From Patescibacteria group bacterium (lineage in GTDB: Bacteria; Patescibacteriota; Minisyncoccia; Phycocordibacterales; CAIZLB01): a stretch of DNA of 64,000 nucleotides. This document shows positions 5,960 to 49,848 of this stretch, in pieces. The notes under the pieces are model-generated. The model worked only from the letters and a program-made list of their open reading frames with translations, did not search any database and was not told the origin of the DNA. The DNA is taken from the NCBI GenBank assembly GCA_040384445.1, contig JAZKJG010000001.1, positions 71,650 through 135,649 on the forward strand, written 5' to 3'. Made by a program: the position numbers and the translations under genes. Position 1 is the first letter of the stretch; each line of letters opens with the position of its first letter.

Positions 5960-6430
5960 ATGAAATACAAAAAACAACACAAAAAAGGATTCACACTCAT
6001 CGAGGTATTGGTAGTTATTGGAATTATCGCCATACTAGCAACCGTGGTTCTTGTGGCAGTAAGTCCTGGAAAACAGTTTAGACAAGCACGAGATACTCAA
6101 CGAGTTGCGAATGTGAACACAATTCTCAATGCAATCGGTCAAAACATTTCAGATCACCAGGGAGTATTCTTCTGTGCAGGCTCACCTGTTACTCTTCCTG
6201 CGGCTCTAACAAACATGACAAGTAATACAGCAAGTGGAGGAGTTGATATTGGAGAATGTCTCGTGCCTGAGTACGTTCCTAAGCTCCCGTATGATCCGCT
6301 TGCAGGAAAAGGGTATTATATTGATGAAGATGATTATGATCTTGGATACAAGGTTATGGCTGACTCATCAGGTAGAATCACGGTTGAAGCAGACGGTGAA
6401 CAACAGGCTTTAATCGCAGTAACTCGATGA
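5960..6430 (+). CDS. Type IV pilin / pseudopilin (prepilin-type N-terminal cleavage/methylation domain)
   Basis: KKGFTLIEVLVVIGIIAILATVV is the canonical G-F-T-L-I-E prepilin motif. Confidence 0.85.
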   Translation: MKYKKQHKKGFTLIEVLVVIGIIAILATVVLVAVSPGKQFRQARDTQRVANVNTILNAIGQNISDHQGVFFCAGSPVTLPAALTNMTSNTASGGVDIGECLVPEYVPKLPYDPLAGKGYYIDEDDYDLGYKVMADSSGRITVEADGEQQALIAVTR

Positions 6431-6468
6431 GGTTGATATTATTTTCTAATATGCTATAGTATTTCAAT

Positions 6469-6591
6469 ATGAAATTGCTATCATCATTAAAAAAGAAAGA
6501 CCTTCGTCAGGGAGAGTTTATTGTTCGAAGAGGAAAACACCTTTATCGAATCAACAAGAAGATTCGAAAACGAAACGCAAAACAAGGGTAA
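6469..6591 (+). CDS. rpmJ: Ribosomal protein bL36, zinc-independent (Cys-free, YkgO/RpmJ2-like) form
   Basis: 40-aa ORF, below the ORF-track cutoff: MKLLSSLKKKDLRQGEFIVRRGKHLYRINKKIRKRNAKQG. It aligns with E. coli YkgO [41 protein letters not shown] and lacks the Zn-ribbon cysteines. Confidence 0.7.
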   Translation: MKLLSSLKKKDLRQGEFIVRRGKHLYRINKKIRKRNAKQG

Positions 6592-6625
6592 AACCTTGTT
6601 TTTTGTTTAATGGTATTATTGAGTT

Positions 6626-8023
6626 ATGAAAAAGCTCACAATACTCTTGGCTTGCTGCTTAGCTCTAGTGCTCTATATATATGTAGAAGCGCCTACTAAA
6701 ATTACGCCCAAAAATGAGACGAAGACTATATCTCTAAACTTCGTAGGAGACATACTCGCTGCGAGAACCATAGAAACGGCAATGCGTAAGAATGGCTATG
6801 ATTATCCATTTGCAAAGATCTCGAAGGAACTAGCAGATGCTGATATTACGTTTGCTAACCTGGAAACACCGCTCATCGCAGGTAATACTACTCCAGGTGG
6901 GAATACTGTGTTCCGAGCCGATACTGCCTTTGCAGACGCATTAAAGAGAACTGGAATTGATATTGTATCTCTGGCCAATAACCACATGAAGGATCAAGGT
7001 GAGAAAGGTATTGTAAGTACTAAGGAAGCATTGGACAAAGCGGGAGTAGTATACGCAGGGGCTGGATTAAGTCTTGATGAAGCGAGATCTTTGAGGATAG
7101 TCGAAGCTAATGGAATTAAAGTTGGATATCTTGCATATAACGACACTGATGTGGTTCCACAAAGTACCTATGCAAATGACTCTCCTCAATCTGGTACGAA
7201 TACTATGGATACAAGACGACTTAAAGAGGATATTGAGAAAGCTCGTTCTCAAGTAAATGTTGTGATTATATCAATGCACTCTGGTACAGAGTATGTGACA
7301 GAAAAGCCTAATACACGTCAAACTACCTTTGCTCGAGCCGCGATCGACTATGGGGCAGACATGGTAATCGGGCATCATCCTCATGTATTACAGCCAATGG
7401 AAATATATAAAAATAAATACATTTTCTATAGTCTCGGAAACTTTGTATTTGATCAAATCATTGCCCCGACTAAAGAAAGTGCATTATTAAAAATGTGGAT
7501 AACTTTCTCAAAGACGGATTCTGGGGTGTGGAAAATTGATAATGCAAAACCTGAAATATTACCACTCGTAATTCAAAATTTTCAACCTCAAAAAACTACC
7601 GATATTTCAAAGAAAAAACTTATTATGAGTCGGTTTAATTCTAGTCCAGCTATTCTTACTTTAGGAGAAGAAATCATATTTGCAGAATTGGCAACAACTA
7701 CCGAAGCTCGGACCCTTGGTCTATCTGGAAGAAAAAAATTACCAGATCGGACAGGTTTGCTGTTTGTCTTTGAGGCTCAAGGGATGCATGGAATATGGAT
7801 GAAGGATATGTTGTTCCCAATTGATATCTATTGGTTCGACCAATCATTTAAGCTTATAGATAAAAGACTTTCTGTCAGTCCTGAAACATATCCAGATGTC
7901 TTTTATCCAAAGCTCAAGGCCACCTATGTCCTTGAGACAAAAGCAGGTCTCTTAGACCCTATGTCCTTGACACAGGACTTGACGGGGGAGTTGACGTTAC
8001 TCGAGTCATATGATAAAAGATAA
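6626..8023 (+). CDS. CapA/PGA_cap family metallophosphatase fused to a C-terminal DUF192 (COG1430) domain, signal-anchored
   Basis: N-terminal NFVGDILAART...GAGLSLDEARS matches CapA. C-terminal GLLFVFEAQGMHGIWMKDMLFPIDIYWFD...YVLETKAG is a strong DUF192 pattern. Confidence 0.75.
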   Translation: MKKLTILLACCLALVLYIYVEAPTKITPKNETKTISLNFVGDILAARTIETAMRKNGYDYPFAKISKELADADITFANLETPLIAGNTTPGGNTVFRADTAFADALKRTGIDIVSLANNHMKDQGEKGIVSTKEALDKAGVVYAGAGLSLDEARSLRIVEANGIKVGYLAYNDTDVVPQSTYANDSPQSGTNTMDTRRLKEDIEKARSQVNVVIISMHSGTEYVTEKPNTRQTTFARAAIDYGADMVIGHHPHVLQPMEIYKNKYIFYSLGNFVFDQIIAPTKESALLKMWITFSKTDSGVWKIDNAKPEILPLVIQNFQPQKTTDISKKKLIMSRFNSSPAILTLGEEIIFAELATTTEARTLGLSGRKKLPDRTGLLFVFEAQGMHGIWMKDMLFPIDIYWFDQSFKLIDKRLSVSPETYPDVFYPKLKATYVLETKAGLLDPMSLTQDLTGELTLLESYDKR

Positions 8024-27491: not shown

Positions 27492-28400
27492 TTAACGCTT
27501 TATACACACCCTCCCTAAACTCATCTTCACTAACCCGTGAAGTTCCAAAATTGTCACATAAATTGACACATCCATACTACTCATAGAAAGAAGTTCGGAA
27601 ATATATTCTTTTGTTACTCCATCCGCAAAACTTTTCACACATTCGAGAATTTGTTTTTCTTTTTCACCAAGAGTTGGTGCAAATTCGTGAGTACTTAGTG
27701 TTTCCTCCGGAATCTCCACCCCATCTTTCCAAAGTTCTACACCATGTATCAAAGCCAAGTTCGTCAATACCTCTGTCAATGTTTCGAGAGATATAAAAAT
27801 TCTTGCTCCTTTATTGATAAGTTCATGTGTACCACGGGATGTTGCTGAATATATGGATCCAGGAATTGCAATAACTTCACGACCATAGTCAGTTGCTAAA
27901 TGCGCGGTGATGAGAGTTCCAGAACTTTGCTCAGCCTCGATCACAATAGTGAGATGTGACATACCAGCCATCAAACGATTGCGAATAGGAAAAGTCCACG
28001 GAGCGGCACGAACAAGAGGTTTGAATTCATTTACAATAAGCCCACCATTTTCAATAATCTTTTGTTTCAAATCAAGATGTGCTCGCGGATAAAAAACTTC
28101 GTCATCAATTCCTGATCCAGGGATAGCAATAGTTGGAATGCCATGCCCGATCGATAATTCGTGTACAATTCCATCAATACCATATGCTGCACCTGAGACT
28201 GTGATGATATTCATCCGTTTTAAATGCTCCATAATATGTCGAACACAATCTTGACCGTACGAACTGGCTTTTCGAGGCCCTACAATACACACATACAGAT
28301 GCGTTTTTGACTGCAGAAGTTGAACATTACCCTCACTATAAAGCTCCTTGGGTGGATCGGGGATATGGGCAAGTAAACCATGTATGGAAGTGTGATGCAT
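27492..28400 (-). CDS. dprA: DNA processing protein DprA (Smf)
   Basis: Rossmann-like DprA core GAAYGIDGIVHELSI plus a C-terminal winged-helix domain. Confidence 0.85.
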   Translation of the reverse strand: MHHTSIHGLLAHIPDPPKELYSEGNVQLLQSKTHLYVCIVGPRKASSYGQDCVRHIMEHLKRMNIITVSGAAYGIDGIVHELSIGHGIPTIAIPGSGIDDEVFYPRAHLDLKQKIIENGGLIVNEFKPLVRAAPWTFPIRNRLMAGMSHLTIVIEAEQSSGTLITAHLATDYGREVIAIPGSIYSATSRGTHELINKGARIFISLETLTEVLTNLALIHGVELWKDGVEIPEETLSTHEFAPTLGEKEKQILECVKSFADGVTKEYISELLSMSSMDVSIYVTILELHGLVKMSLGRVCIKR

Positions 28401-39772: not shown

Positions 39773-40321
39773 ATGCGGAGGTGTGTTTTATATATACAGA
39801 AAGAAATACCTACCATGTGCCTCATAACCGTTCCAAAGGCCGCTGATATTGAACAACAAGCACGTTACCGGCATGACTATCAATTCGGTCGCCCGACTGG
39901 TGGTCATCGCCTTGACGTGGATAAAGTCGCAGCTTGTTCACAACCTGTGCCCAGTGTTGGTCTCGAGTTCCTCTCTCGACCCACAATGGCAGCACTTGTG
40001 AAAGCAGAAGAGAAGGATATCAAGGAGCACCTGTGCCACTTTGATCTCCTTGCCCTTCGGGATCAGTTTGATGATTTGCCGATGTCGTTCAGGCAGCGGT
40101 TACATACCTGTGAGCTCTATGCGGCTCGTGGTATCGCTCTTGTTGGTTCAACTTTGGTCATTCCGTACATTACCGCGACCAACCTCAAACCGTTTGTTGG
40201 TTTTGCCAGCGTTCTGCAGATTCTCGAAAATCGGCACATCCTTGGTAGAATCAGTCCTCGCCGTGAGGGGACACGCATGCAGAGTTCACATCTCCATCTT
40301 GTGAACAGCAGTCGAAATTAA
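39773..40321 (+). CDS. Hypothetical protein (GC-rich islet)
   Basis: ORF with about 50% GC and no known motif. Confidence 0.35.
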   Translation: MRRCVLYIQKEIPTMCLITVPKAADIEQQARYRHDYQFGRPTGGHRLDVDKVAACSQPVPSVGLEFLSRPTMAALVKAEEKDIKEHLCHFDLLALRDQFDDLPMSFRQRLHTCELYAARGIALVGSTLVIPYITATNLKPFVGFASVLQILENRHILGRISPRREGTRMQSSHLHLVNSSRN

Positions 40322-40383
40322 ACTCCATCAACCCATCGAAATTTCGCCCGTCCCTCGAGTCCAACTCGGGTGGCGGGCATTTC

Positions 40384-40617
40384 TTATTGAATCTCAAGCG
40401 CCTTTGCAATGTCCTCAACCCCTGCATCACACACCCATTTCCCATCTATATTTAGTGTAGGGCTTTTATTTTGACCAGTTGCTTCTTCAACTTCTTTTTT
40501 AAACTCAGGATTTTTCAAAATATCTCGTTCCTCGAAAGCTATGTTGTGTTTTTTTAGGTATAACATTGCTTCTACGGCCCAAGGACAGAGTGTTTTTGTA
40601 TACATAATTATTTTCAT
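40384..40617 (-). CDS. Glutaredoxin-like protein (NrdH/Grx fold, monothiol CPWA variant)
   Basis: MKIIMYTKTLCPWAVEAMLYLKKHNIAFEERDI...TLNIDGKWV is the Grx fold, but the second active-site Cys is replaced by Ala. Confidence 0.6.
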   Translation of the reverse strand: MKIIMYTKTLCPWAVEAMLYLKKHNIAFEERDILKNPEFKKEVEEATGQNKSPTLNIDGKWVCDAGVEDIAKALEIQ

Positions 40618-40763
40618 AATACATAGATTATACCATAGGTTTGACTATATGTTGTAAACCGTGGTATATATTACTCTGGATGTACCTTGTCAAATACCTC
40701 TGTTTTCTCGTTCGCGGGTGCGGGCGAGAATTCTTTCATTATGACTATTTATCAATACTTGTT

Positions 40764-41429
40764 ATGGGGAAACAAAATAAAATGTTAGTGCTGAAAATCG
40801 GACCTCCATGTTCCGGTAAAGGCGCATTAGGAAAAGCCATTGCCCATCTGCATGGCAAAACCACAACCGTAGTCACGATGCGTGATCTGATCCTGGAAGA
40901 AAAGAAACGTAATTCCGAGTTCATGAGGGTTTCAACTGAATTCCAGGCGGCTGGAAACTTGCTGCCCTCACTATACATCAAGCAGATTCTGAAACGACTT
41001 GCTTCCACGACCTGCAATGCTCCAGTTTTATTCTTGGACGGCGCTCCTCGGAACGCCGATCAGATCATTATGCTGAAGCACCTCTTCAATCAACGTGAGA
41101 TCTGTATCTTCGAAAGTTTGGCTACTGATGAGCACCTGCTCTCAGTTTTCAAGCAAACATTGGAGGCTACCGATCGTACGGGCCGTGAAGATGCAAAAGA
41201 TTCTGTTCACAATGAACGAGTCCAAATCTACCGACACAATTTGCCAGCTATTCATGCTGCATGCAAAACTGTAGGATGGTATCGCTACCATACACAAGCT
41301 GCTGCAACACTGAAGGCAAAAGTTCGGAGATTCGAAGACATTGCGAACAGGAAACCTGTCAAACCGGGTTCTTTTGAAAACCTCGAAGAAATTCTTGGTC
41401 TTCCTAAGCTCAACCTGGCCGCAGCCTAA
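40764..41429 (+). CDS. Adenylate kinase-family nucleoside monophosphate kinase. The ORF extends to 40641, but the start is probably MGKQNK.
   Basis: P-loop GPPCSGKGA (AK consensus GPPGSGKGT), the LDGAPRNADQ (LDGFPR) motif and a lid-like R..R..D region. Confidence 0.65.
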   Translation: MGKQNKMLVLKIGPPCSGKGALGKAIAHLHGKTTTVVTMRDLILEEKKRNSEFMRVSTEFQAAGNLLPSLYIKQILKRLASTTCNAPVLFLDGAPRNADQIIMLKHLFNQREICIFESLATDEHLLSVFKQTLEATDRTGREDAKDSVHNERVQIYRHNLPAIHAACKTVGWYRYHTQAAATLKAKVRRFEDIANRKPVKPGSFENLEEILGLPKLNLAAA

Positions 41430-41515
41430 ACACCCCACGCATCAACCCTCTCTCAGGTTCTAATCCGAAAGAGAGCGGTTGGTGTTTTTTAATATATGCT
41501 ACAATATCACTACCT

Positions 41516-42142
41516 ATGTTCAGTCACTATTTTAATATTATCCTGAATTACGCAGAATCAGGATCTTCAGTTCTCGTTGATTATTTATATCCAATTGTTT
41601 TTTTGTCCGCTCTTTCAGAATCCACCCCGATACTTGGTACCTTTACACCGGGAACTCTATTTTTACTTTTCTTTGGATATACCGCTTCTGTAAATGCTAT
41701 TAATCTCGCTCTAGTAGTACTTGTTGCAACACTTGGAGCAATAGTTGGGGATGTGCTTGGATATTTACTTGGTCGTCATGCTACGGGTTGGATGTTACGA
41801 CATAAAAAGATTTTAAAAGAAGCGCATATTGAACAAGGACGTGCATTTTTCAGTAAACATGGAGGGAAGAGTATTTTGATTGGAAGATTCGTTGGTCCGA
41901 TTCGACCTATTGTGCCACTGATTGCTGGAAGTATTGGAATGAGTATGAGAAAGTTTTTGTTCTGGAATATTCTTGGAGCGTTTTTGTGGGCGACATTGTA
42001 TGTCACAATTGGATTTTTCTTTGGCGCGTATGCGAGAGATATTGAAAAAGTTGTGTCTGATACTGGATTAGTGATTTCTGTAATTATTTTTATTGGTGCG
42101 GTTGTGTATTATTTTAAATATATGAAAAACCAGACGAAGTAG
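41516..42142 (+). CDS. DedA family membrane protein
   Basis: DedA/SNARE-associated signature GAIVGDVLGYLLGRH...GRFVGPIRPIVPLIAG. Confidence 0.85.
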   Translation: MFSHYFNIILNYAESGSSVLVDYLYPIVFLSALSESTPILGTFTPGTLFLLFFGYTASVNAINLALVVLVATLGAIVGDVLGYLLGRHATGWMLRHKKILKEAHIEQGRAFFSKHGGKSILIGRFVGPIRPIVPLIAGSIGMSMRKFLFWNILGAFLWATLYVTIGFFFGAYARDIEKVVSDTGLVISVIIFIGAVVYYFKYMKNQTK

Positions 42143-42143
42143 G
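42122..42143 (+). repeat. 22-bp direct repeat, copy 1 (atgaaaaaccagacgaagtagg). It covers the last 6 codons and stop of DedA.
   Basis: An exact second copy lies at 46651-46672, immediately after the stop of the 4.4-kb giant gene. Confidence 0.9.
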
Positions 42144-42211
42144 TGATACCACTTATGCCTTGTTATTGTCAAACAAGAATTTTGTAGATACGTGATAGAA
42201 TTGGTGTTAAT

Positions 42212-45200
42212 ATGTCTATAAAAAATTTAAAGAAATGCGCATTTATTTTTGTTGGAATAGTGCTTGTGTTTTACGGAGAAAAAACTTTTGCCGCATACCC
42301 ACTTGGTAACGAAGCTGTATTTTATCATTTTGAAGAAGCTGCAACTGCAACATCAACAAACAGTGGAAGTGGTGGTTCTGCATATGATGGAACTTTTGCT
42401 GGAGCAGCAAGTACAACTGCACTTGTTAAGCGTTTTGGTGCGCAAAGTGCATCATTTGGAGAAACAGGTGATTACATGAAAACGTATTTTGCAAGTGGTA
42501 CAAATCCTACTGCACAATCATTATCAGTAAGTATGTGGGTATATAAAAAAGAGGCATCAAATGGCTGTCCTGCTGGTGGTGATGATCATTTTTTCGGATC
42601 TAGTGGACAACCGTCAGGATCACGGTTTTATTTACGATGTACTGGAGGATTTTGGGGTAGTCGTTTTGGAGCAGCTGCAGCTGCAAACTCAACAGTGACT
42701 GGTGTGACACACCAGGGGTGGGACCATATTGTGCTCGTGTTTGATGCAACAAATGACACACCAAAATTATATGTAAACAATGTTCTCAGGGCAACATCAC
42801 CGCTCGTGAGCTCATACACAATCACAAATGCATTTTTTGTCGGAGGTGTGAATGATACCATTACAACTCCAGGTGTCCTCAGTTCATCTGAAAATGCGGG
42901 TGCAAATATTGATGAAGTTGCAATATATACAACAGCACTTTCTTTAAGTGATATTACAACTTTATATAAAGCAGGTGATCTCGTTGCTCCTGTAATTTCG
43001 TCTATTGCAACATCAACCGTTTCTGCAACATCAACAACGATTTCGTGGACTACAGATGAATCTGGATCAACACAGGTTGAATATGGATTAACAGGATCAT
43101 ACGGAAGTCTAACGACAGAAACTGATACAACAACATTTGTGACAAGTCACTCAGCAACATTGTCAGGGTTAGCTGAAAATACGTTATATTATTATCGTGT
43201 TATTTCACGAGACCCAACAGGTGCAACTGCAACTTCATCACAAGGAACATTTACTTCCGGATCAATGACTGCCCCTGGTCAACCTTCTGCATTGAGTGTG
43301 ATTCCTTATGAAGGTAGAGCACATCTTACCTGGACAGCAGCGACCGGTGATCTGACTGACTACTTGGTAGAATACAAATTATCAAGTGATGGTGGATGGA
43401 CCACTTTTACAGATGGTGTATCTATCGCAACTACTACCATGGTTACAGGTTTGGTAAATAATTTCGCATATGATTTTAGAGTCACAGCAAGTAATCAATC
43501 TACTCCAGGCCCAGTATCAAGTACAGTGTCAACAACTCCTGTATATAGAGTGACTTTTGCAGGTTCTACTCCCGCTCACTTGTCTGTGATCACGGGATCA
43601 TCTGTAACAGTATCTGCATCTACTACACTCCCTTCGTTTTCATTTGCTTCAAGTACTCAAACTCTTCGACTAGAAACAGCCGGAGGATCTTTGGTGAGTC
43701 AAGTTTCTACAACTACGCGGTACGGAGATTATAATCTTACGCATCTTATAAATACGCTGGCCGATTCTGATCTTTCACTGGCAGGCAACTCTTCGGGTAT
43801 GGCATACGTTGGAACAACTGATACATTGTTTATAGTGCATAATGCAGCGGTTGGCTCAAATTCAACAATTGATGAAGTTGATAAAAATGGAACGCTCATT
43901 CGATCAATTACATGTACACTGTGTGGGGACATTGAAAGTATCGTATTGCTATCATCTGTTGCTTCAACAACCGCTGGTGGGTTTGATCATACGTTCATGA
44001 TTGGAACTGAAAATAATACATCGAGCGCTGAAATATTTAGAGTAGTTATTTATTCAACAGGAACAACTGCAGTTAATCGTTTAGATTATTTTAATATAGG
44101 AGTCTCGCACGCTGCAAACGGAGGACTTGAGGGTATTGCATATAATTCAACATCAGGAGTGTTCTATGTTGCTCGAGAACTTACGACACCTGCGTTATAT
44201 GAAGTAACACTGGGTGCAGGGCATGCTGCATCTGCGGTTCAAATATGTTCAAACTTGACACTCGGAGCTACAATTAGTGATTTCTCTGACCTTTCATTTA
44301 AAAATAATATTTTGTATGCCTTAAGTGAGAATACAAATCCAAGTAAGCTGGTGCCGATAAATATTACGAGCACAAGTACATGTACACTTGTTGACAGTAA
44401 TGAAAATGGGACTGCAAGTAGTAGTGATACAGGAGACTGGTTAACTTCAGTTCCTGTAGGAGTTACTGATCAAGCAGAGGGTGTGGTATGGGATGCTACA
44501 GGAGATGTTTTGTATGTTTTAGGTGAAGCTGATTTTTTAGCAAAATATAGAACTACTGCATTTAATGCTCAACACACATTTACAGGATTAGCAGACGGAA
44601 ACTATGTTTTAAAAGCATCCTTTACTGATACGAATGGAATCACATCATCATCAACAGATAGATTATTTACAATTAGTAATGATAGTATTTCACCTGTAAT
44701 TTCATCTATTGCGTCATCATCTATCACATCAACATCAGCTACTCTAACTTGGGGGACAAATGAATCAACCGTTTCTTCTGTGTCTTATGGAACAACAACT
44801 GGTTACGGTATGACGGCTACGTCATCTGCAACATCCACGCATCAAGTCTTGTTAACAGGTTTGGTACCGGAAACAGCATATCATTTTAGAGTATTTGCTG
44901 CAGATCAATCTTCAAACACTTCGCTCTCAGCTGATTATACGTTTACAACATCTGTAGCTCCAGATGTAACTGCTCCAAGTATTTCTAATATTGCATCAAG
45001 CACGACCGATACAAGCGTAACAATTGCATGGACAACTGATGAAAACTCAGACAGTCAGGTTGAGTACGGATTAACATCTTCATATACTTCGTCTTCAACT
45101 CTTGATACCAATGCAACAACTTCACACTCAGTTGTAATCACGAGTTTAGCACCAGCTACCGTGTACCATTTTAGAATCATATCAAAGGATACAGCACTTA

Positions 45201-46648
45201 ACCTTGCAACAACATCTGATTATAACGTGACAACATCTGCTGACAGTGTTGCTCCTGTTATTTCTTTACCTTCTGCTTCAATCAATTCTGGAACATCTGC
45301 AATTATTTCTTGGAATACAAATGAGAATGCAACAAGCTTGGTAAGATATGGTTTGACGGCAACATACACAGCAACAACAAGTTTAGGCGTTGCAACAACG
45401 GCAACACATAGTGTAAGTTTGTCTGATTTGAAAGCGTGTACACAATATCATTATCAGATTTTAACAACCGACGCCGTGGGAAATAGTTCGACTACAACGG
45501 ACTCTCTGTTTACAACATCTGGCTGTGCAGGAGGTACTTCGGTTCAGGAGGTCAATACTGTTGCAATAAGTAATTCAACTGGAGATATAGCAACGACTAC
45601 ATCAGCGTCGACAGGTAATACTGTTGTCTTGGATATTCCTGCAGGATACTCAACTTCATCAAGTGTTATTTTTCAGATCAAACAAGTTGAGGATCTTGCT
45701 GTGATTTCTGGAACAGGCGGGGTGAGTGGTAAGAGTATTGTAGGAGATCAGATGTATGATCTACAGGCGTATCTGAATGCCTCAACAAGTATGACTGCAT
45801 TTAATGCAACTCTTACAATCAATATGAGTTACCGAACTATTGATGCGTCTGGATATGACGAGTCATCATTTAAGATATATAGATATGATGGGGTATCGTG
45901 GACTGAATTGCCAAGCTGTGTAGTTGATGTAACACAGAACACGGTAACATGTGAGACTACTTATTTTTCAACTTTTGGATTGTTTGGAATACCAAACTCT
46001 GTAGTGGCCCCGACGGTAATCAACTCTTCAACAGGGGGTAGTGGTGTAATGTATTCGCATGTTGCTCAAAATTTGCCAACATTAACAAGTACAACCTCAA
46101 CAAGATATGTTTTCATAAGAGATTTAAAGGTGGGAAGTGTAGGAGATGATGTTCGGTTGTTGCAACAATTTCTAAACAATAGCGGATATATCGTTGCAAA
46201 AGTTGGGGTACCAGGATCATCAGGAAAAGAAACAAATGTATTTGGAAGTGCAACAAAAGCTGCCCTTATGCGATTTCAATTTTCACAGATAGGGATTAAT
46301 AGAAATGGTGTGGTTGATGTTAAAACAAGAGCCATATTGAACACTGGAGTGTTTGCATGGACTCCTATAAGTACGTCTGGAACATCTCAATTTGTGAAAA
46401 CATTATCTTTTGGTAATGTATCGTCTGATGTAAAAAGATTGCAACAATTCCTAAACTCAAGTGGGTATACAGTTTCTGCTTTTGGAGCAGGATCTGTTGG
46501 CAAAGAGACTACGTTGTTTGGATCTGCAACTCGAGCTGCTGTTATTAAATTTCAGTTAACTAATGGACTTGTGCAGACCGCTAAAGATAAGGAGTATGGA
46601 AAATTTGGTCCTCAAACAATATTGAAAATAAATGAATTGATAAAGTAG
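42212..46648 (+). CDS. Giant secreted, cell-wall-associated protein: signal peptide, LamG/ConA-like lectin domain, 2x FN3, a beta-propeller-like central region, 3x FN3, then 2x peptidoglycan-binding (PG_binding_1) domains
   Basis: Signal peptide MSIKNLKKCAFIFVGIVLVFYGEKTFA. A LamG-like block is at aa 30-240. The FN3 repeats follow the pattern PVISSIA...ISWTT.E...QVEYGLT..Y.......T.HS..L..L...T.Y.YR. The C-terminal pair of LQQFLN..GY......G..GKET..FGSAT.AA...FQ PG-binding motifs is clear. Confidence 0.85.
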   Translation: MSIKNLKKCAFIFVGIVLVFYGEKTFAAYPLGNEAVFYHFEEAATATSTNSGSGGSAYDGTFAGAASTTALVKRFGAQSASFGETGDYMKTYFASGTNPTAQSLSVSMWVYKKEASNGCPAGGDDHFFGSSGQPSGSRFYLRCTGGFWGSRFGAAAAANSTVTGVTHQGWDHIVLVFDATNDTPKLYVNNVLRATSPLVSSYTITNAFFVGGVNDTITTPGVLSSSENAGANIDEVAIYTTALSLSDITTLYKAGDLVAPVISSIATSTVSATSTTISWTTDESGSTQVEYGLTGSYGSLTTETDTTTFVTSHSATLSGLAENTLYYYRVISRDPTGATATSSQGTFTSGSMTAPGQPSALSVIPYEGRAHLTWTAATGDLTDYLVEYKLSSDGGWTTFTDGVSIATTTMVTGLVNNFAYDFRVTASNQSTPGPVSSTVSTTPVYRVTFAGSTPAHLSVITGSSVTVSASTTLPSFSFASSTQTLRLETAGGSLVSQVSTTTRYGDYNLTHLINTLADSDLSLAGNSSGMAYVGTTDTLFIVHNAAVGSNSTIDEVDKNGTLIRSITCTLCGDIESIVLLSSVASTTAGGFDHTFMIGTENNTSSAEIFRVVIYSTGTTAVNRLDYFNIGVSHAANGGLEGIAYNSTSGVFYVARELTTPALYEVTLGAGHAASAVQICSNLTLGATISDFSDLSFKNNILYALSENTNPSKLVPINITSTSTCTLVDSNENGTASSSDTGDWLTSVPVGVTDQAEGVVWDATGDVLYVLGEADFLAKYRTTAFNAQHTFTGLADGNYVLKASFTDTNGITSSSTDRLFTISNDSISPVISSIASSSITSTSATLTWGTNESTVSSVSYGTTTGYGMTATSSATSTHQVLLTGLVPETAYHFRVFAADQSSNTSLSADYTFTTSVAPDVTAPSISNIASSTTDTSVTIAWTTDENSDSQVEYGLTSSYTSSSTLDTNATTSHSVVITSLAPATVYHFRIISKDTALNLATTSDYNVTTSADSVAPVISLPSASINSGTSAIISWNTNENATSLVRYGLTATYTATTSLGVATTATHSVSLSDLKACTQYHYQILTTDAVGNSSTTTDSLFTTSGCAGGTSVQEVNTVAISNSTGDIATTTSASTGNTVVLDIPAGYSTSSSVIFQIKQVEDLAVISGTGGVSGKSIVGDQMYDLQAYLNASTSMTAFNATLTINMSYRTIDASGYDESSFKIYRYDGVSWTELPSCVVDVTQNTVTCETTYFSTFGLFGIPNSVVAPTVINSSTGGSGVMYSHVAQNLPTLTSTTSTRYVFIRDLKVGSVGDDVRLLQQFLNNSGYIVAKVGVPGSSGKETNVFGSATKAALMRFQFSQIGINRNGVVDVKTRAILNTGVFAWTPISTSGTSQFVKTLSFGNVSSDVKRLQQFLNSSGYTVSAFGAGSVGKETTLFGSATRAAVIKFQLTNGLVQTAKDKEYGKFGPQTILKINELIK

Positions 46649-46650
46649 TT

Positions 46651-46672
46651 ATGAAAAACCAGACGAAGTAGG
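46651..46672 (+). repeat. 22-bp direct repeat, copy 2. It is embedded in a hairpin, ccagacgaagtag-ggtcgaa-ctacttgtctgg.
   Basis: Identical to 42122-42143, and forms a stem-loop across 46659-46690. Confidence 0.9.
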
Positions 46673-46696
46673 GTCGAACTACTTGTCTGGTCGGGG

Positions 46697-47494
46697 TTAG
46701 GGACGATATAACTGTCGATACTCGACAGAATCAATTGAGAAAATATTAAAGAATGCTTCCAAAGCACGTCTTTGTGTACTCAGGTCTTTGATTAAATCTT
46801 CAATTGAGTTGAAACTAAAATCTGGATCCTTAAACAGTTGAGGCAAAATTTCCTGTCGAACACCTGCTTTGATTTGCATAATCCTGCAATACGAATCTAA
46901 CTCCTCCCATTTGTGATGCAAAATTAACTCTTCAAATGCTGAGGCGTTTCGATATGAGACATTTAGATTATCAAACGTTGTCAGAATCATCTTATTACGA
47001 ATTAATGCTCTGAATGCTTTATCGATGCCAAAATGTGTAATTCCTAAGAGTTCAGAAATATTTCGTTTCCACCTTTTATCTTTCATCCAGCCTAAGGCCA
47101 TGAAAATATGGATAGCTTCAATAGGTGGAGTTATTTTAGCTGTCCCTTCTAGAGCATCGACAATAAACAAATGACTTACTTTCTCAGCATAATTGAAAAG
47201 AGTGTGAACCAGTTTTGTTGCTGGGAGTCGTGTCCCACAGAGTAGTTTATCAGTTTCGGTCGGCTCATCTTCTCGATAATAACTCTGCATTAAAAACCGT
47301 TGTACGTACTCACCTGGATCAGATCTCAGAAAGGAACAGGCAGTTCTTTCTGAACCCGCTTCTTTTGTAGCGAGTGCTCTAAGGATTGAAATGAACAAGT
47401 TGATTAACGTAATCGACTTAAAATTTGGTCCTACGTTGAGAGGTATAATTGTGAGAGCAGAACCAATCACAGGGCTAAAGTGAAATTTTTTCAT
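46697..47494 (-). CDS. Hypothetical protein
   Basis: 265-aa ORF with no recognised domain. Confidence 0.4.
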   Translation of the reverse strand: MKKFHFSPVIGSALTIIPLNVGPNFKSITLINLFISILRALATKEAGSERTACSFLRSDPGEYVQRFLMQSYYREDEPTETDKLLCGTRLPATKLVHTLFNYAEKVSHLFIVDALEGTAKITPPIEAIHIFMALGWMKDKRWKRNISELLGITHFGIDKAFRALIRNKMILTTFDNLNVSYRNASAFEELILHHKWEELDSYCRIMQIKAGVRQEILPQLFKDPDFSFNSIEDLIKDLSTQRRALEAFFNIFSIDSVEYRQLYRP

Positions 47495-47598
47495 AAGCTA
47501 AAAATTGTAAAGAACAAACTCTTGCAAACCCCAGAAGTGGGGTACGAAAGACTGTGGTATTGATACCACTCGTATGCTATAATTGTCAAATTAACAAT

Positions 47599-49848
47599 AT
47601 GCGTTCATCCAAACCATTCATCATTAAACATACGCACAAGCCAGCAGGGGACCAACCAGCAGCTATTAAGAAGATTATTGAAGGTCTTAGGTCTGGCATG
47701 CAAAAACAAACTCTTCTTGGAGCGACAGGAACGGGTAAGACTTTTACGATGGCAAATGTGATCGCAGATGTACAAAGACCAACATTGGTTGTAGCACATA
47801 ACAAAACGCTTGCAGCTCAGCTCGCACAAGAGTTTAAGGAATTTTTTCCAGACAATGCAGTACATTATTTTGTATCGTATTATGACTACTATCAGCCTGA
47901 AGCATATATTTCAACGAGTGATACATACATTGAAAAAGAAGCGCAGATAAACGAAGAGATTGATCGCCTAAGACATGCAACAACACAGGCTCTATTAACG
48001 CGAAATGATGTGATTATTGTTGCATCTGTTTCTTGTATTTATGGTTTAGGATCTCCTGTTGAATATGAGAAGGTAAACTTTCTACTTCGACGAGATGAAA
48101 AAATGGACAGAGGAGAAGTTGTACGAAAACTCGTGCACATGTATTTTACACGGACAATTGCGGATGTAACACCTGCAACGTTTCGTGCACTTGGGAATAC
48201 TCTTGAAGTGATGCCAACACATGAGCGAATGATTTGGAGATTAATTTTTACAGGAGATAGATTAACGCGTATTGAAGAGATAGATCATATTACTCGACAA
48301 ATTATAAATCCAGATGTTGAGTCAATTCTTATTTTCCCAGCAAAACACTTTGTGACTCCAGAAGACGAAAGGGTTCGAGCAATTGAAGATATTAAAGCAG
48401 AGTTAACCGATCGTTTGAAAGTTTTAGAAGAAGGTGGAAAAGTAATTGAACATGAGAGATTAAAAAGACGAACAAATTACGACTTAGCTCTTTTACGAGA
48501 AGTTGGGTATTGTAATGGAATCGAAAACTACTCACGACATTTTTCAGGAAAAAAACCAGGTGAACCTGCTGATACACTTTTGTCATATTTTCCAGAGGGA
48601 TTTTTAACAATGATTGATGAGTCCCATGTGACGGTCCCTCAGTTAAATGGAATGTATGCCGGAGATGCTTCACGAAAAAAGAATCTTATTGATTTCGGAT
48701 TTCGACTTCCATCTGCTGCAGATAACCGACCGTTGCGATTTGCTGAGTTTGAAGAACGTACAGGACAGACAGTATATGTGTCTGCAACCCCAGGACCATA
48801 CGAATTAGAACAATCAAAAACAACACAAGTAGTACAACAAATTATTCGACCAACAGGTCTTGTTGATCCCGAACTGATTATTCGTCCAGTAGTGGGGACT
48901 GATACGTATGTCGGACAGATTTATGATTTTATTGCAGAAGTGGAAAAGAATACTGCAGCAGGAGAGCGAACACTTGCAACTACTTTGACCAAAAAGATGG
49001 CTGAAGATCTGTCTGAATTTTTAATTGCAAAAGGGATAAAGACTCGATACTTGCATAGTGATGTAGAAACCATGGAACGAATTCAAATACTTACAGAATT
49101 ACGTAAGGGTGCTTTTGATGTGCTTGTTGGAGTAAACCTGCTTCGAGAAGGACTGGATCTTCCTGAGGTATCTCTCATTGGAATTTTGGATGCAGATAAA
49201 GAAGGATTTCTTCGATCAAAAACTGCACTTATTCAAACCATTGGTCGTGCAGCTCGAAACGTAAACGGTAGAGTTATTTTGTACGCTGATAAAGTTACAA
49301 ACTCATTGACTGGTGCAATAGAGGAAACATTGCGTAGAAGAAATATTCAGCTTGCGTATAACAAAGAACATGGAATTACTCCACAGACTATTAAGAAAAC
49401 AATTCATGATATTACTGAAGCTATAGAAAATGAACATGAGAAAAGTGTGCGAGAAATGTTGACACTTGACCTCGGTATTGACAGTTTAGATGATATTGAA
49501 AAACAAACAGGGGCAGATAGTAAAAAAACCCTCAAGAAAATTTCTGTTTTAATTAAACAAAAGGAAAAAGAAATGAATGCTGCAGTTAAGGAGTTGGATT
49601 TTGAAACTGCTGCACTTCTACGAGATGAGATGCTTGCACTTGCAAAGATTCAAGAAACTGCAGGACAACCGAAGAAAGAGAAGAAAACAGCTTTTAAAGA
49701 TATGGAGAAGAAGGGTGATAAACGAGCACTCAATTTTTTACCCGAAGTTGAAAGTAAACATGTGGTAAATGTGAAATTTGGGAAGAAAGGTGCTGTGAAG
49801 AAAATCAAAGAACAGGATAAAAGACTAGGAAAAAAGAAAGCAGAGTAG
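47599..49848 (+). CDS. uvrB: Excinuclease ABC subunit B with a lysine-rich C-terminal extension
   Basis: Walker A GATGTGKT, helicase motifs and the UVR domain (LDFETAALLRDEMLAL). About 80 extra K-rich residues follow the UVR domain. Confidence 0.93.
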   Translation: MRSSKPFIIKHTHKPAGDQPAAIKKIIEGLRSGMQKQTLLGATGTGKTFTMANVIADVQRPTLVVAHNKTLAAQLAQEFKEFFPDNAVHYFVSYYDYYQPEAYISTSDTYIEKEAQINEEIDRLRHATTQALLTRNDVIIVASVSCIYGLGSPVEYEKVNFLLRRDEKMDRGEVVRKLVHMYFTRTIADVTPATFRALGNTLEVMPTHERMIWRLIFTGDRLTRIEEIDHITRQIINPDVESILIFPAKHFVTPEDERVRAIEDIKAELTDRLKVLEEGGKVIEHERLKRRTNYDLALLREVGYCNGIENYSRHFSGKKPGEPADTLLSYFPEGFLTMIDESHVTVPQLNGMYAGDASRKKNLIDFGFRLPSAADNRPLRFAEFEERTGQTVYVSATPGPYELEQSKTTQVVQQIIRPTGLVDPELIIRPVVGTDTYVGQIYDFIAEVEKNTAAGERTLATTLTKKMAEDLSEFLIAKGIKTRYLHSDVETMERIQILTELRKGAFDVLVGVNLLREGLDLPEVSLIGILDADKEGFLRSKTALIQTIGRAARNVNGRVILYADKVTNSLTGAIEETLRRRNIQLAYNKEHGITPQTIKKTIHDITEAIENEHEKSVREMLTLDLGIDSLDDIEKQTGADSKKTLKKISVLIKQKEKEMNAAVKELDFETAALLRDEMLALAKIQETAGQPKKEKKTAFKDMEKKGDKRALNFLPEVESKHVVNVKFGKKGAVKKIKEQDKRLGKKKAE

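Follow-up and report, generated by a model that had tools for sequence, protein, structure and literature searches.

Introduction

Some genomic islands integrate at the 3′ ends of tRNA or protein genes and leave behind a direct repeat that preserves the gene. These 3′-end islands, including the integrase-less cis-mobilisable elements, share with the locus described here a direct repeat of about 20 bp that carries the 3′ end of the target, an intact target gene and an insert without an integrase. Integron cassettes resemble it in being single-gene units whose boundary is an imperfect hairpin (attC) containing an extrahelical base. In natural transformation, homology-facilitated illegitimate recombination (HFIR) and Campbell-type insertion likewise add a gene beside a homologous anchor without a dedicated recombinase, and duplicate short stretches of the recipient at the junction. 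The locus lies in a stretch of 64,000 nucleotides from a Patescibacteria group bacterium (assembly GCA_040384445.1, contig JAZKJG010000001.1, positions 71,650 to 135,649), where an exact direct repeat brackets a gene for a giant surface protein of 1478 aa between dedA and uvrB. Throughout, the window means this whole 64-kb stretch, whose source is a metagenome-assembled genome (MAG). The product itself can be compared with the large FN3-containing membrane or secreted proteins of Patescibacteria, which are candidate host-adhesion factors and evolve rapidly (PMC13059738, PMC11809585).

Our preferred reading, to which we give a probability of about 0.6, is that the giant adhesin-like gene entered once, and fairly long ago, into the terminator shared by dedA and a convergent open reading frame (ORF265), in the ancestor of the window and one relative, L045. 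Entry would have been independent of a recombinase and assisted by homology, with local sequence being reused. It looks like an ordinary kind of recombination event and not like a new mobile-element system.

The direct repeat at the end of dedA

The repeat and the genes that flank it are arranged as follows.

41516..42142, forward strand: dedA, encoding a DedA/VTT-domain membrane protein of 208 aa (Pfam VTT_dom, E = 4e-19), with its last codons and stop inside R1
42121..42143, forward strand: R1, repeat copy 1, encoding Y-M-K-N-Q-T-K-stop of DedA, without a hairpin partner, and the same in sequence in L045
42212..46648, forward strand: the giant surface-protein gene (1478 aa), recognised by its Pfam domains, its homologues and its L045 orthologue
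46650..46672, forward strand: R2, repeat copy 2, which provides the U-run and 5′ arm of the terminator hairpin
46659..46690, reverse strand: predicted intrinsic terminator hairpin of ORF265, reading CCAGACAAGTAG-loop-CTACTTCGTCTGG and then UUUUUCAUA
46697..47494, reverse strand: ORF265, a convergent orphan gene, the positional counterpart of ORF203 in L034 and ORF254 in L036, with a 76-aa remnant in L035

An earlier note, made from the sequence alone, had described an exact 22-bp direct repeat whose first copy forms the last codons and stop of dedA and whose second follows directly on the stop of the 1478-aa gene as half of a hairpin, and each of these statements proved accurate, apart from the length. 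The 22-mer occurs exactly twice in the window (42122-42143 and 46651-46672), and the identity runs one base further to give a repeat of 23 bp, TATGAAAAACCAGACGAAGTAGG, at 42121-42143 and 46650-46672 (23/23 identity). R1 spans the final codons and TAG stop of dedA (41516-42142), and R2 begins 2 nt past the stop of the 1478-aa ORF (42212-46648) and forms the 5′ arm of the hairpin.

A chance repeat is ruled out by a shuffle test, in which none of 100 dinucleotide-preserving shuffles held a second match to the 22-mer with up to 3 mismatches allowed. A generic terminator motif is likewise excluded, by the occurrence of only two copies in the window and by the unrelated nature of the matches found elsewhere: a 19-mer scan of JGI metagenomes gave 2 unrelated contigs and a 16-mer scan of IMG/VR gave 16 matches with dissimilar flanks, all judged to be chance matches, and near matches to the 13-mer of the stem occur in the window at chance level only. 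The two JGI contigs, both AT-rich and from one unrelated metagenome, carry the 19-mer AAAAACCAGACGAAGTAGG (L043 784-802 and L044 2738-2756) just 5′ of similar genes for small membrane proteins (MNxRKKEIKFFF...), where it is a repeated element within that organism; its match to the 23-bp repeat was judged to be due to chance.

Empty and filled sites in related genomes

A scan of a genome collection and a DedA protein search yielded a graded series of relatives (L003-L005, L034-L037, L045 and L046), which were used for pairwise and tree comparisons. DedA orthologues with 77-99% identity are present in L034-L037, L045 and L046. In four of these genomes (L035, L034, L036 and L046, with DedA 77-90% identical to that of the window) the site is empty, dedA running straight into an intact hairpin that is followed by a minus-strand ORF and then, where the contig reaches, by uvrB. 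In L035 the sequence of the empty site is AACCAGACGAAGTAGGGTAGAACTACTTGTCTGG, whose arms are those of the R2 hairpin in the window. In L037 (DedA 88% identical) the contig ends inside the loop, and this site looks empty too. The site is filled in L045, which has R1, the short segment S1 described below and the giant gene, and whose DedA is 99% identical, with about 90% DNA identity over 2.5 kb. In L003, L004 and L005, where UvrB is 91%, 79% and 77% identical, respectively, dedA overlaps or abuts uvrB, and the hairpin, the minus-strand gene and the giant gene are all absent.

The empty site that the earlier note had named as a check on its proposal, dedA followed directly by the hairpin, is thus present in four relatives, and in L037 as far as the contig reaches. 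What the note had named as evidence against itself was a set of relatives that all carry the gene, together with a 22-mer recurring as a generic motif; five relatives are empty, and the 22-mer occurs only twice in the window. Its suggestion of a surface-protein cassette that is exchanged between conserved flanks fared less well, as the sites are either empty or hold the same gene, and no different cargo was found in any of them.

Neighbour-joining trees built from dedA unite the window and L045 in one clade (94-100% support) and place this pair within a ladder of genomes that have the empty site (L046, L037, (L034, L036), L035); the genomes without the ORF265 module (L003-L005) fall outside. 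Because the filled clade is nested among empty-site genomes, the trees point to one gain of the giant gene. Since the insertion is common to two lineages that are about 10% diverged in DNA, it is not recent.

Sequence comparison also suggests that the hairpin, ORF265 and the uvrB promoter form a module that had come to lie between dedA and uvrB through an earlier insertion, and that this module replaced the C-terminus of DedA, which would be why the terminator stem of an inserted gene encodes the last residues of its neighbour. The dedA-uvrB junction would then have received nested insertions. In the outgroup genomes dedA overlaps the start of uvrB (L003 2383-2450, L004 10590-10640; compare window 42121-42143).

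A terminator that also encodes the end of DedA

The hairpin is made up of CCAGACGAAGTAG (46659-46671), the loop GGTCGAA and CTACTTGTCTGG (46679-46690), which pair as a 12/13-bp stem with one bulged G and a predicted energy of -17.6 kcal/mol (z = -4.2). Read on the minus strand, it starts 6 nt after the stop of ORF265 and is followed by the U-run UUUUUCAUA, of which the L035 version is UUUUUAUUUUU. Because the U-run lies on the minus strand, we assign the hairpin mainly to the convergent ORF265, as its predicted intrinsic terminator. A stable GC-containing stem-loop, an adjoining U-run, a position 3′ of a stop codon and a conserved structure are all found here. The hairpin is present in four related genomes as well as the window, and comparison of its 15 pairs in this small sample of 5 sequences revealed one compensatory pair (A-U vs G-C, in 2 vs 3 genomes), the other pairs being invariant or changed on one side. 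It was not picked up by a simple terminator scanner, probably owing to the bulge.

The outer arm of the terminator also encodes the end of DedA, (Q/R)-T-K-stop, in the window and in the hairpin-bearing relatives, and in the empty-site genomes the same hairpin also ends dedA. The earlier proposal that insertion of the giant gene had split the dedA terminator can therefore be kept in part: the empty sites confirm the split, but the terminator is mainly that of ORF265 and not that of dedA.

The minus-strand ORFs at this position are weakly homologous (L034 vs L036 36% over 206 aa; window vs either E ~1e-7), and as this homology is weak but detectable, ORF265 appears to be a fast-evolving ancestral gene of the clade. 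Either extremely fast evolution or decay would account for it. Each close relative has a counterpart at the same position, yet with only 24-36% identity. ORF265 has no Pfam or PHROG match, no homologues were found in searches of 5.8 billion or 1.8 billion proteins (the latter being representative proteins, at E <= 0.001), and its single-sequence AlphaFold model has a pLDDT (predicted local distance difference test) of 36. None of this gives any sign of a hidden recombinase, an idea that was therefore set aside.

A second duplication, from the uvrB promoter

A second pair of related segments lies next to R1 and upstream of uvrB.

42144..42173, forward strand: S1, TGATACCACTTATGCCTTGTTATTGTCAAA, a diverged copy of S2 that runs from the first base after R1 and has a degenerate -10 box
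47554..47569, no strand: palindrome GTGGTAT-TG-ATACCAC at the left edge of S2, the start of S1 corresponding to its centre
47561..47590, forward strand: S2, TGATACCACTCGTATGCTATAATTGTCAAA, the ancestral uvrB promoter region, with an extended -10 TGcTATAAT at 47575-47583
47599..49848, forward strand: uvrB, with a conserved ATG start at 47599 (MRSSKPFIIKHTH...)

The ancestral order at this locus is dedA - [hairpin] - ORF265 (minus strand) - [S promoter] - uvrB, and the present one is dedA-R1-S1-giant gene-R2-hairpin-ORF265-S2-uvrB. On its left the incoming gene thus has copies of R and then S, the two ends of the ancestral intergenic region, and on its right R again; at the empty site R and S are about 900-950 bp apart. 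All 30 bp of S2 recur unchanged in L035, and an almost identical stretch lies upstream of uvrB in L034; the palindrome is also kept, at 8664-8680 in L035 and at about 7630-7645 in L034, as GGTATTGATACC. It overlaps the uvrB promoter at its -35 region and might act as the operator of a dimeric repressor, in damage-inducible control of uvrB for instance.

When the 68-nt spacer between dedA and the giant gene is aligned, S2 is its best local match anywhere in the window, and the exact 10-mer TGATACCACT occurs in the window only at S1 and S2. The weight of the argument comes from the position of S1 and from its exact start in L045, where it reads TGATACCACTCGT... and matches S2 exactly over 13 nt and at 24/30 positions without gaps. 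That such a match should begin by chance at the first base after R1 is very unlikely, at an estimated ~1e-5 for a 13-mer in a 950-bp interval. S1 has lost its -10 box and is therefore a relic and not a shared regulatory motif. A generic promoter element was also rejected, given the restriction of the 10-mer within the window to S1 and S2 and the finding that loose matches to the -10 half of the S motif in the window are at chance level. A hybrid hairpin at the R1|S1 junction was considered and set aside; it is weak and not kept in L045.

The R1|S1 joint corresponds to the ancestral interval minus everything between the loop of the first hairpin and the centre of GTGGTAT-TG-ATACCAC, and the giant gene occupies the position at which a tandem duplication of R...S would have its novel joint. 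Because S1, a copy from the other end of the ancestral interval, adjoins R1, the 23 bp do not amount to a clean target-site duplication or a clean att core. Both were among the origins that the earlier note had proposed, and a copy of S beside R1 is not expected from either transposition or site-specific integration.

How the gene may have entered

Derived and empty orthologous sites, duplicated recipient sequence and an insert without the hallmarks of a mobile element together make up the picture of a duplication-insertion scar. No Pfam matches to integrase, resolvase, transposase or Phage_integrase were found among the approximately 45 ORFs of the 64-kb window, in agreement with the earlier note, and no terminal inverted repeats are present, the ends of the insert (TGATACCACTT... 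and ...GATAAAGTAGT) being unrelated. Genes for DprA (DNA_processg_A, 27492-28400) and a type IV pilin-like protein (N_methyl, 5960-6430), both competence-related, are found in the window and are consistent with natural DNA uptake.

The comparisons establish the insertion and its direction as well as the duplications and the terminator; the molecular route is something that we infer, and it may have taken one of two forms. In the first, the R...S interval of about 950 bp would have been duplicated around the incoming gene, for example by a Campbell-type single crossover with a circular fragment carrying the gene and a copy of R...S, and the redundant first copy of ORF265 would then have been deleted from the loop of hairpin 1 to the centre of the S palindrome. 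In the second, a single event of HFIR or template switching would have involved an incoming molecule in which the dedA end and R were already joined to S and the gene, with an illegitimate right-hand join 23 bp upstream of the end of the homology. After either route, R1 would have been constrained as the coding sequence of the DedA C-terminus and R2 as terminator stem and U-run, and S1, being functionless, would have drifted to about 80% identity. The 23/23 identity of R1 and R2 despite their age would thus be due to the retention of one as coding sequence and of the other as terminator.

Several points weigh against this account. The direction of change rests on a tree of one short gene, in which the support of the inner nodes is 50-72%. 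Taken alone, the S1/S2 alignment score is only about 1.8 standard deviations above the best chance match in the window. No intermediate allele was found among the genomes compared, neither dedA-R-S-uvrB nor a duplicated R-ORF265-S, and no donor locus. On inspection, microhomology at the junctions amounts to no more than 1 nt. Unlike the described cases of HFIR and Campbell-type insertion, then, the locus comes without an observed donor or intermediate and without clear microhomology at the junction, and its double local duplication, of R and S 900 bp apart, needs two steps or a donor that was already rearranged. In addition, site-specific integration would likewise leave a repeat of this kind, 23 bp long and restoring the 3′ end of a gene.

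Alternative explanations

The remnant of such an integration, with the 23 bp as an att core at the 3′ end of dedA and the integrase lost or acting in trans, is the best-placed of the alternatives, though in our view an unlikely one. The same direct repeat stands at both ends (23/23), at a length plausible for an att core; it holds the 3′ end and stop of a gene that is kept intact, and it overlaps a hairpin. The sequence beside R1, which in an island would be the element DNA next to attL, is instead S1, a local chromosomal copy of the uvrB promoter. The cargo consists of a single gene of native appearance, no integrase or other recombinase was found in the 64 kb, and the repeat was met with no other cargo and at no other locus in the window or in the JGI and IMG/VR scans, so that there is no second occurrence of site or element. 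Homologues of the gene elsewhere (L041, L042 and L047) are not bracketed by repeats of at least 10 bp, and the insertion is old and fixed in two lineages.

It is improbable, and rather more so, that the giant gene is ancestral and that the empty sites arose by repeated precise deletion through R1 x R2 recombination. Such recombination would recreate the exact empty-site sequence, and its product would be indistinguishable by sequence alone from a site that was never filled. On the dedA tree, however, this would require at least 4 independent precise losses against one gain, which is judged to be far more parsimonious; the outgroups L003-L005 also lack the gene, and the origin of the R1-S1 junction would still need to be explained.

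We give only a slim chance to a hairpin-guided insertion of cassettes in trans in Patescibacteria, by which an unrecognised enzyme with its gene elsewhere in the genome would cut the tips of terminator hairpins and palindromes and paste in single surface-protein genes. If it were true, R would be a genuine core of recombination, and the mechanism would have left its mark in the two breakpoints, at the loop of hairpin 1 and the centre of GTGGTAT-TG-ATACCAC. The likeness to integron cassettes ends with the hairpin, as no RYYYAAC/GTTRRRY core sites were seen by inspection around 46650-46700, and there is no IntI and no array; copy 1 also lacks a second arm, and the hairpin of the window is a conserved terminator that is found in gene-free relatives too.

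A transposon target-site duplication is very improbable: the direct repeats do abut the inserted DNA exactly, but 23 bp is well beyond the usual size of 2-14 bp, terminal inverted repeats and a transposase are missing, and the S1 copy would be left unexplained. Finally, an assembly artefact or chance match is scarcely credible, for although the DNA comes from a MAG, and misjoins at small k can arise from short exact repeats, an independent k=31 Logan contig matches window 41000-48000 exactly and spans both junctions identically, the 23-bp repeat being shorter than k, the same left junction, dedA-R1-giant gene, is found in L045, a contig of another assembly, and the shuffles gave no second match.

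The giant surface protein

At its N-terminus the giant protein carries a hydrophobic signal or anchor, and at its C-terminus two PG_binding_1 domains; it also has repeated FN3/Pur_ac_phosph_N domains and an SdiA-regulated-like propeller. A signal or anchor, FN3-type repeats, cell-wall binding domains, rapid evolution and a patchy distribution are features that it has in common with the large FN3-rich surface proteins of Patescibacteria (PMC13059738, PMC11809585), from which it differs in joining an SdiA-regulated-like propeller with two PG_binding_1 domains. Homologues are at best about 50% identical, come nearly all from Patescibacteria and stand in varied genomic contexts. Several of the best carry the LamG-like domain Laminin_G_3, for which the window protein has no Pfam match.

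Foreign composition was ruled out by the GC and codon-usage check that the earlier note had suggested. The GC content (GC) of the gene is 0.394 against a genome mean of 0.387 +/- 0.037, GC at third codon positions (GC3) is typical for the genome, and the codon distance of 0.076 is among the lowest in the window. A phage origin was also rejected, as no viral relative was found and PHROG matches are limited to the PG-binding and FN3 domains.

At the protein level, identity to the L045 orthologue is 91.7%. Differences between the two genes lie mostly at third codon positions, and the gene is under purifying selection between the window and L045. At the nucleotide level identity is 88% for the giant gene and 96.5% for dedA, and third-position divergence is 25.7% and 9.6%, respectively. 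Along window 41491-44010 and L045 842-3361 the identity is mosaic, at 94-98% over dedA and the spacer and 73-99% per 120-nt window over the giant gene, which could reflect inter-lineage recombination or uneven constraint.

One further feature lies between S1 and the start codon.

42193..42201, forward strand: extended -10-like motif TGATAGAAT, 10 nt 5′ of the ATG of the giant gene, read from the sequence

By its resemblance to the consensus, and being absent from the promoter-scan list, TGATAGAAT is a possible promoter that would give a near-leaderless mRNA.

Homologues of the giant protein lie 3-5 kb upstream of a DedA gene (45-54% identity) in three Patescibacteria genomes that are only distantly related: L007 (homologue 1168-2793, DedA gene 6465-7067), L041 (1210-4149 and 7463-8119) and L042 (2214-5957 and 8887-9522). 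The proximity is thus recurrent but loose, and the gene context differs (PAP2, DNA_alkylation, DAO). That dedA and the giant gene form a conserved neighbourhood was considered and rejected, as the context in these three genomes is different, that in L047 is unrelated, and none of these loci matches that of the window.

Just upstream of dedA, an adenylate-kinase-like gene (40641-41429; GC 0.45, GC3 0.45) and an ORF at 39773-40321 (GC 0.49) are atypical in composition for the window. The adenylate-kinase-like protein is hypervariable, being 59% identical to that of L045 (where DedA is 99% identical), 42% to that of L034 and 28% to that of L037, and 39773-41429 may be a second variable spot.

Implications for surface-protein turnover

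For the interpretation of similar loci, an exact direct repeat around a gene is not in itself proof of an att site or a target-site duplication. The insertion target here was a bidirectional terminator, the stem of which doubles as coding sequence for the C-terminus of the neighbouring protein, and both 23-bp copies would have been kept by selection, for different reasons. The locus offers a clean and datable gain of a giant adhesin-like surface protein in an episymbiotic bacterium with a reduced genome, and its empty, filled and pre-module states can all be compared with one another. It indicates that such genes can be added without the machinery of mobile elements, and may be a useful case for work on how surface proteins turn over in Patescibacteria.

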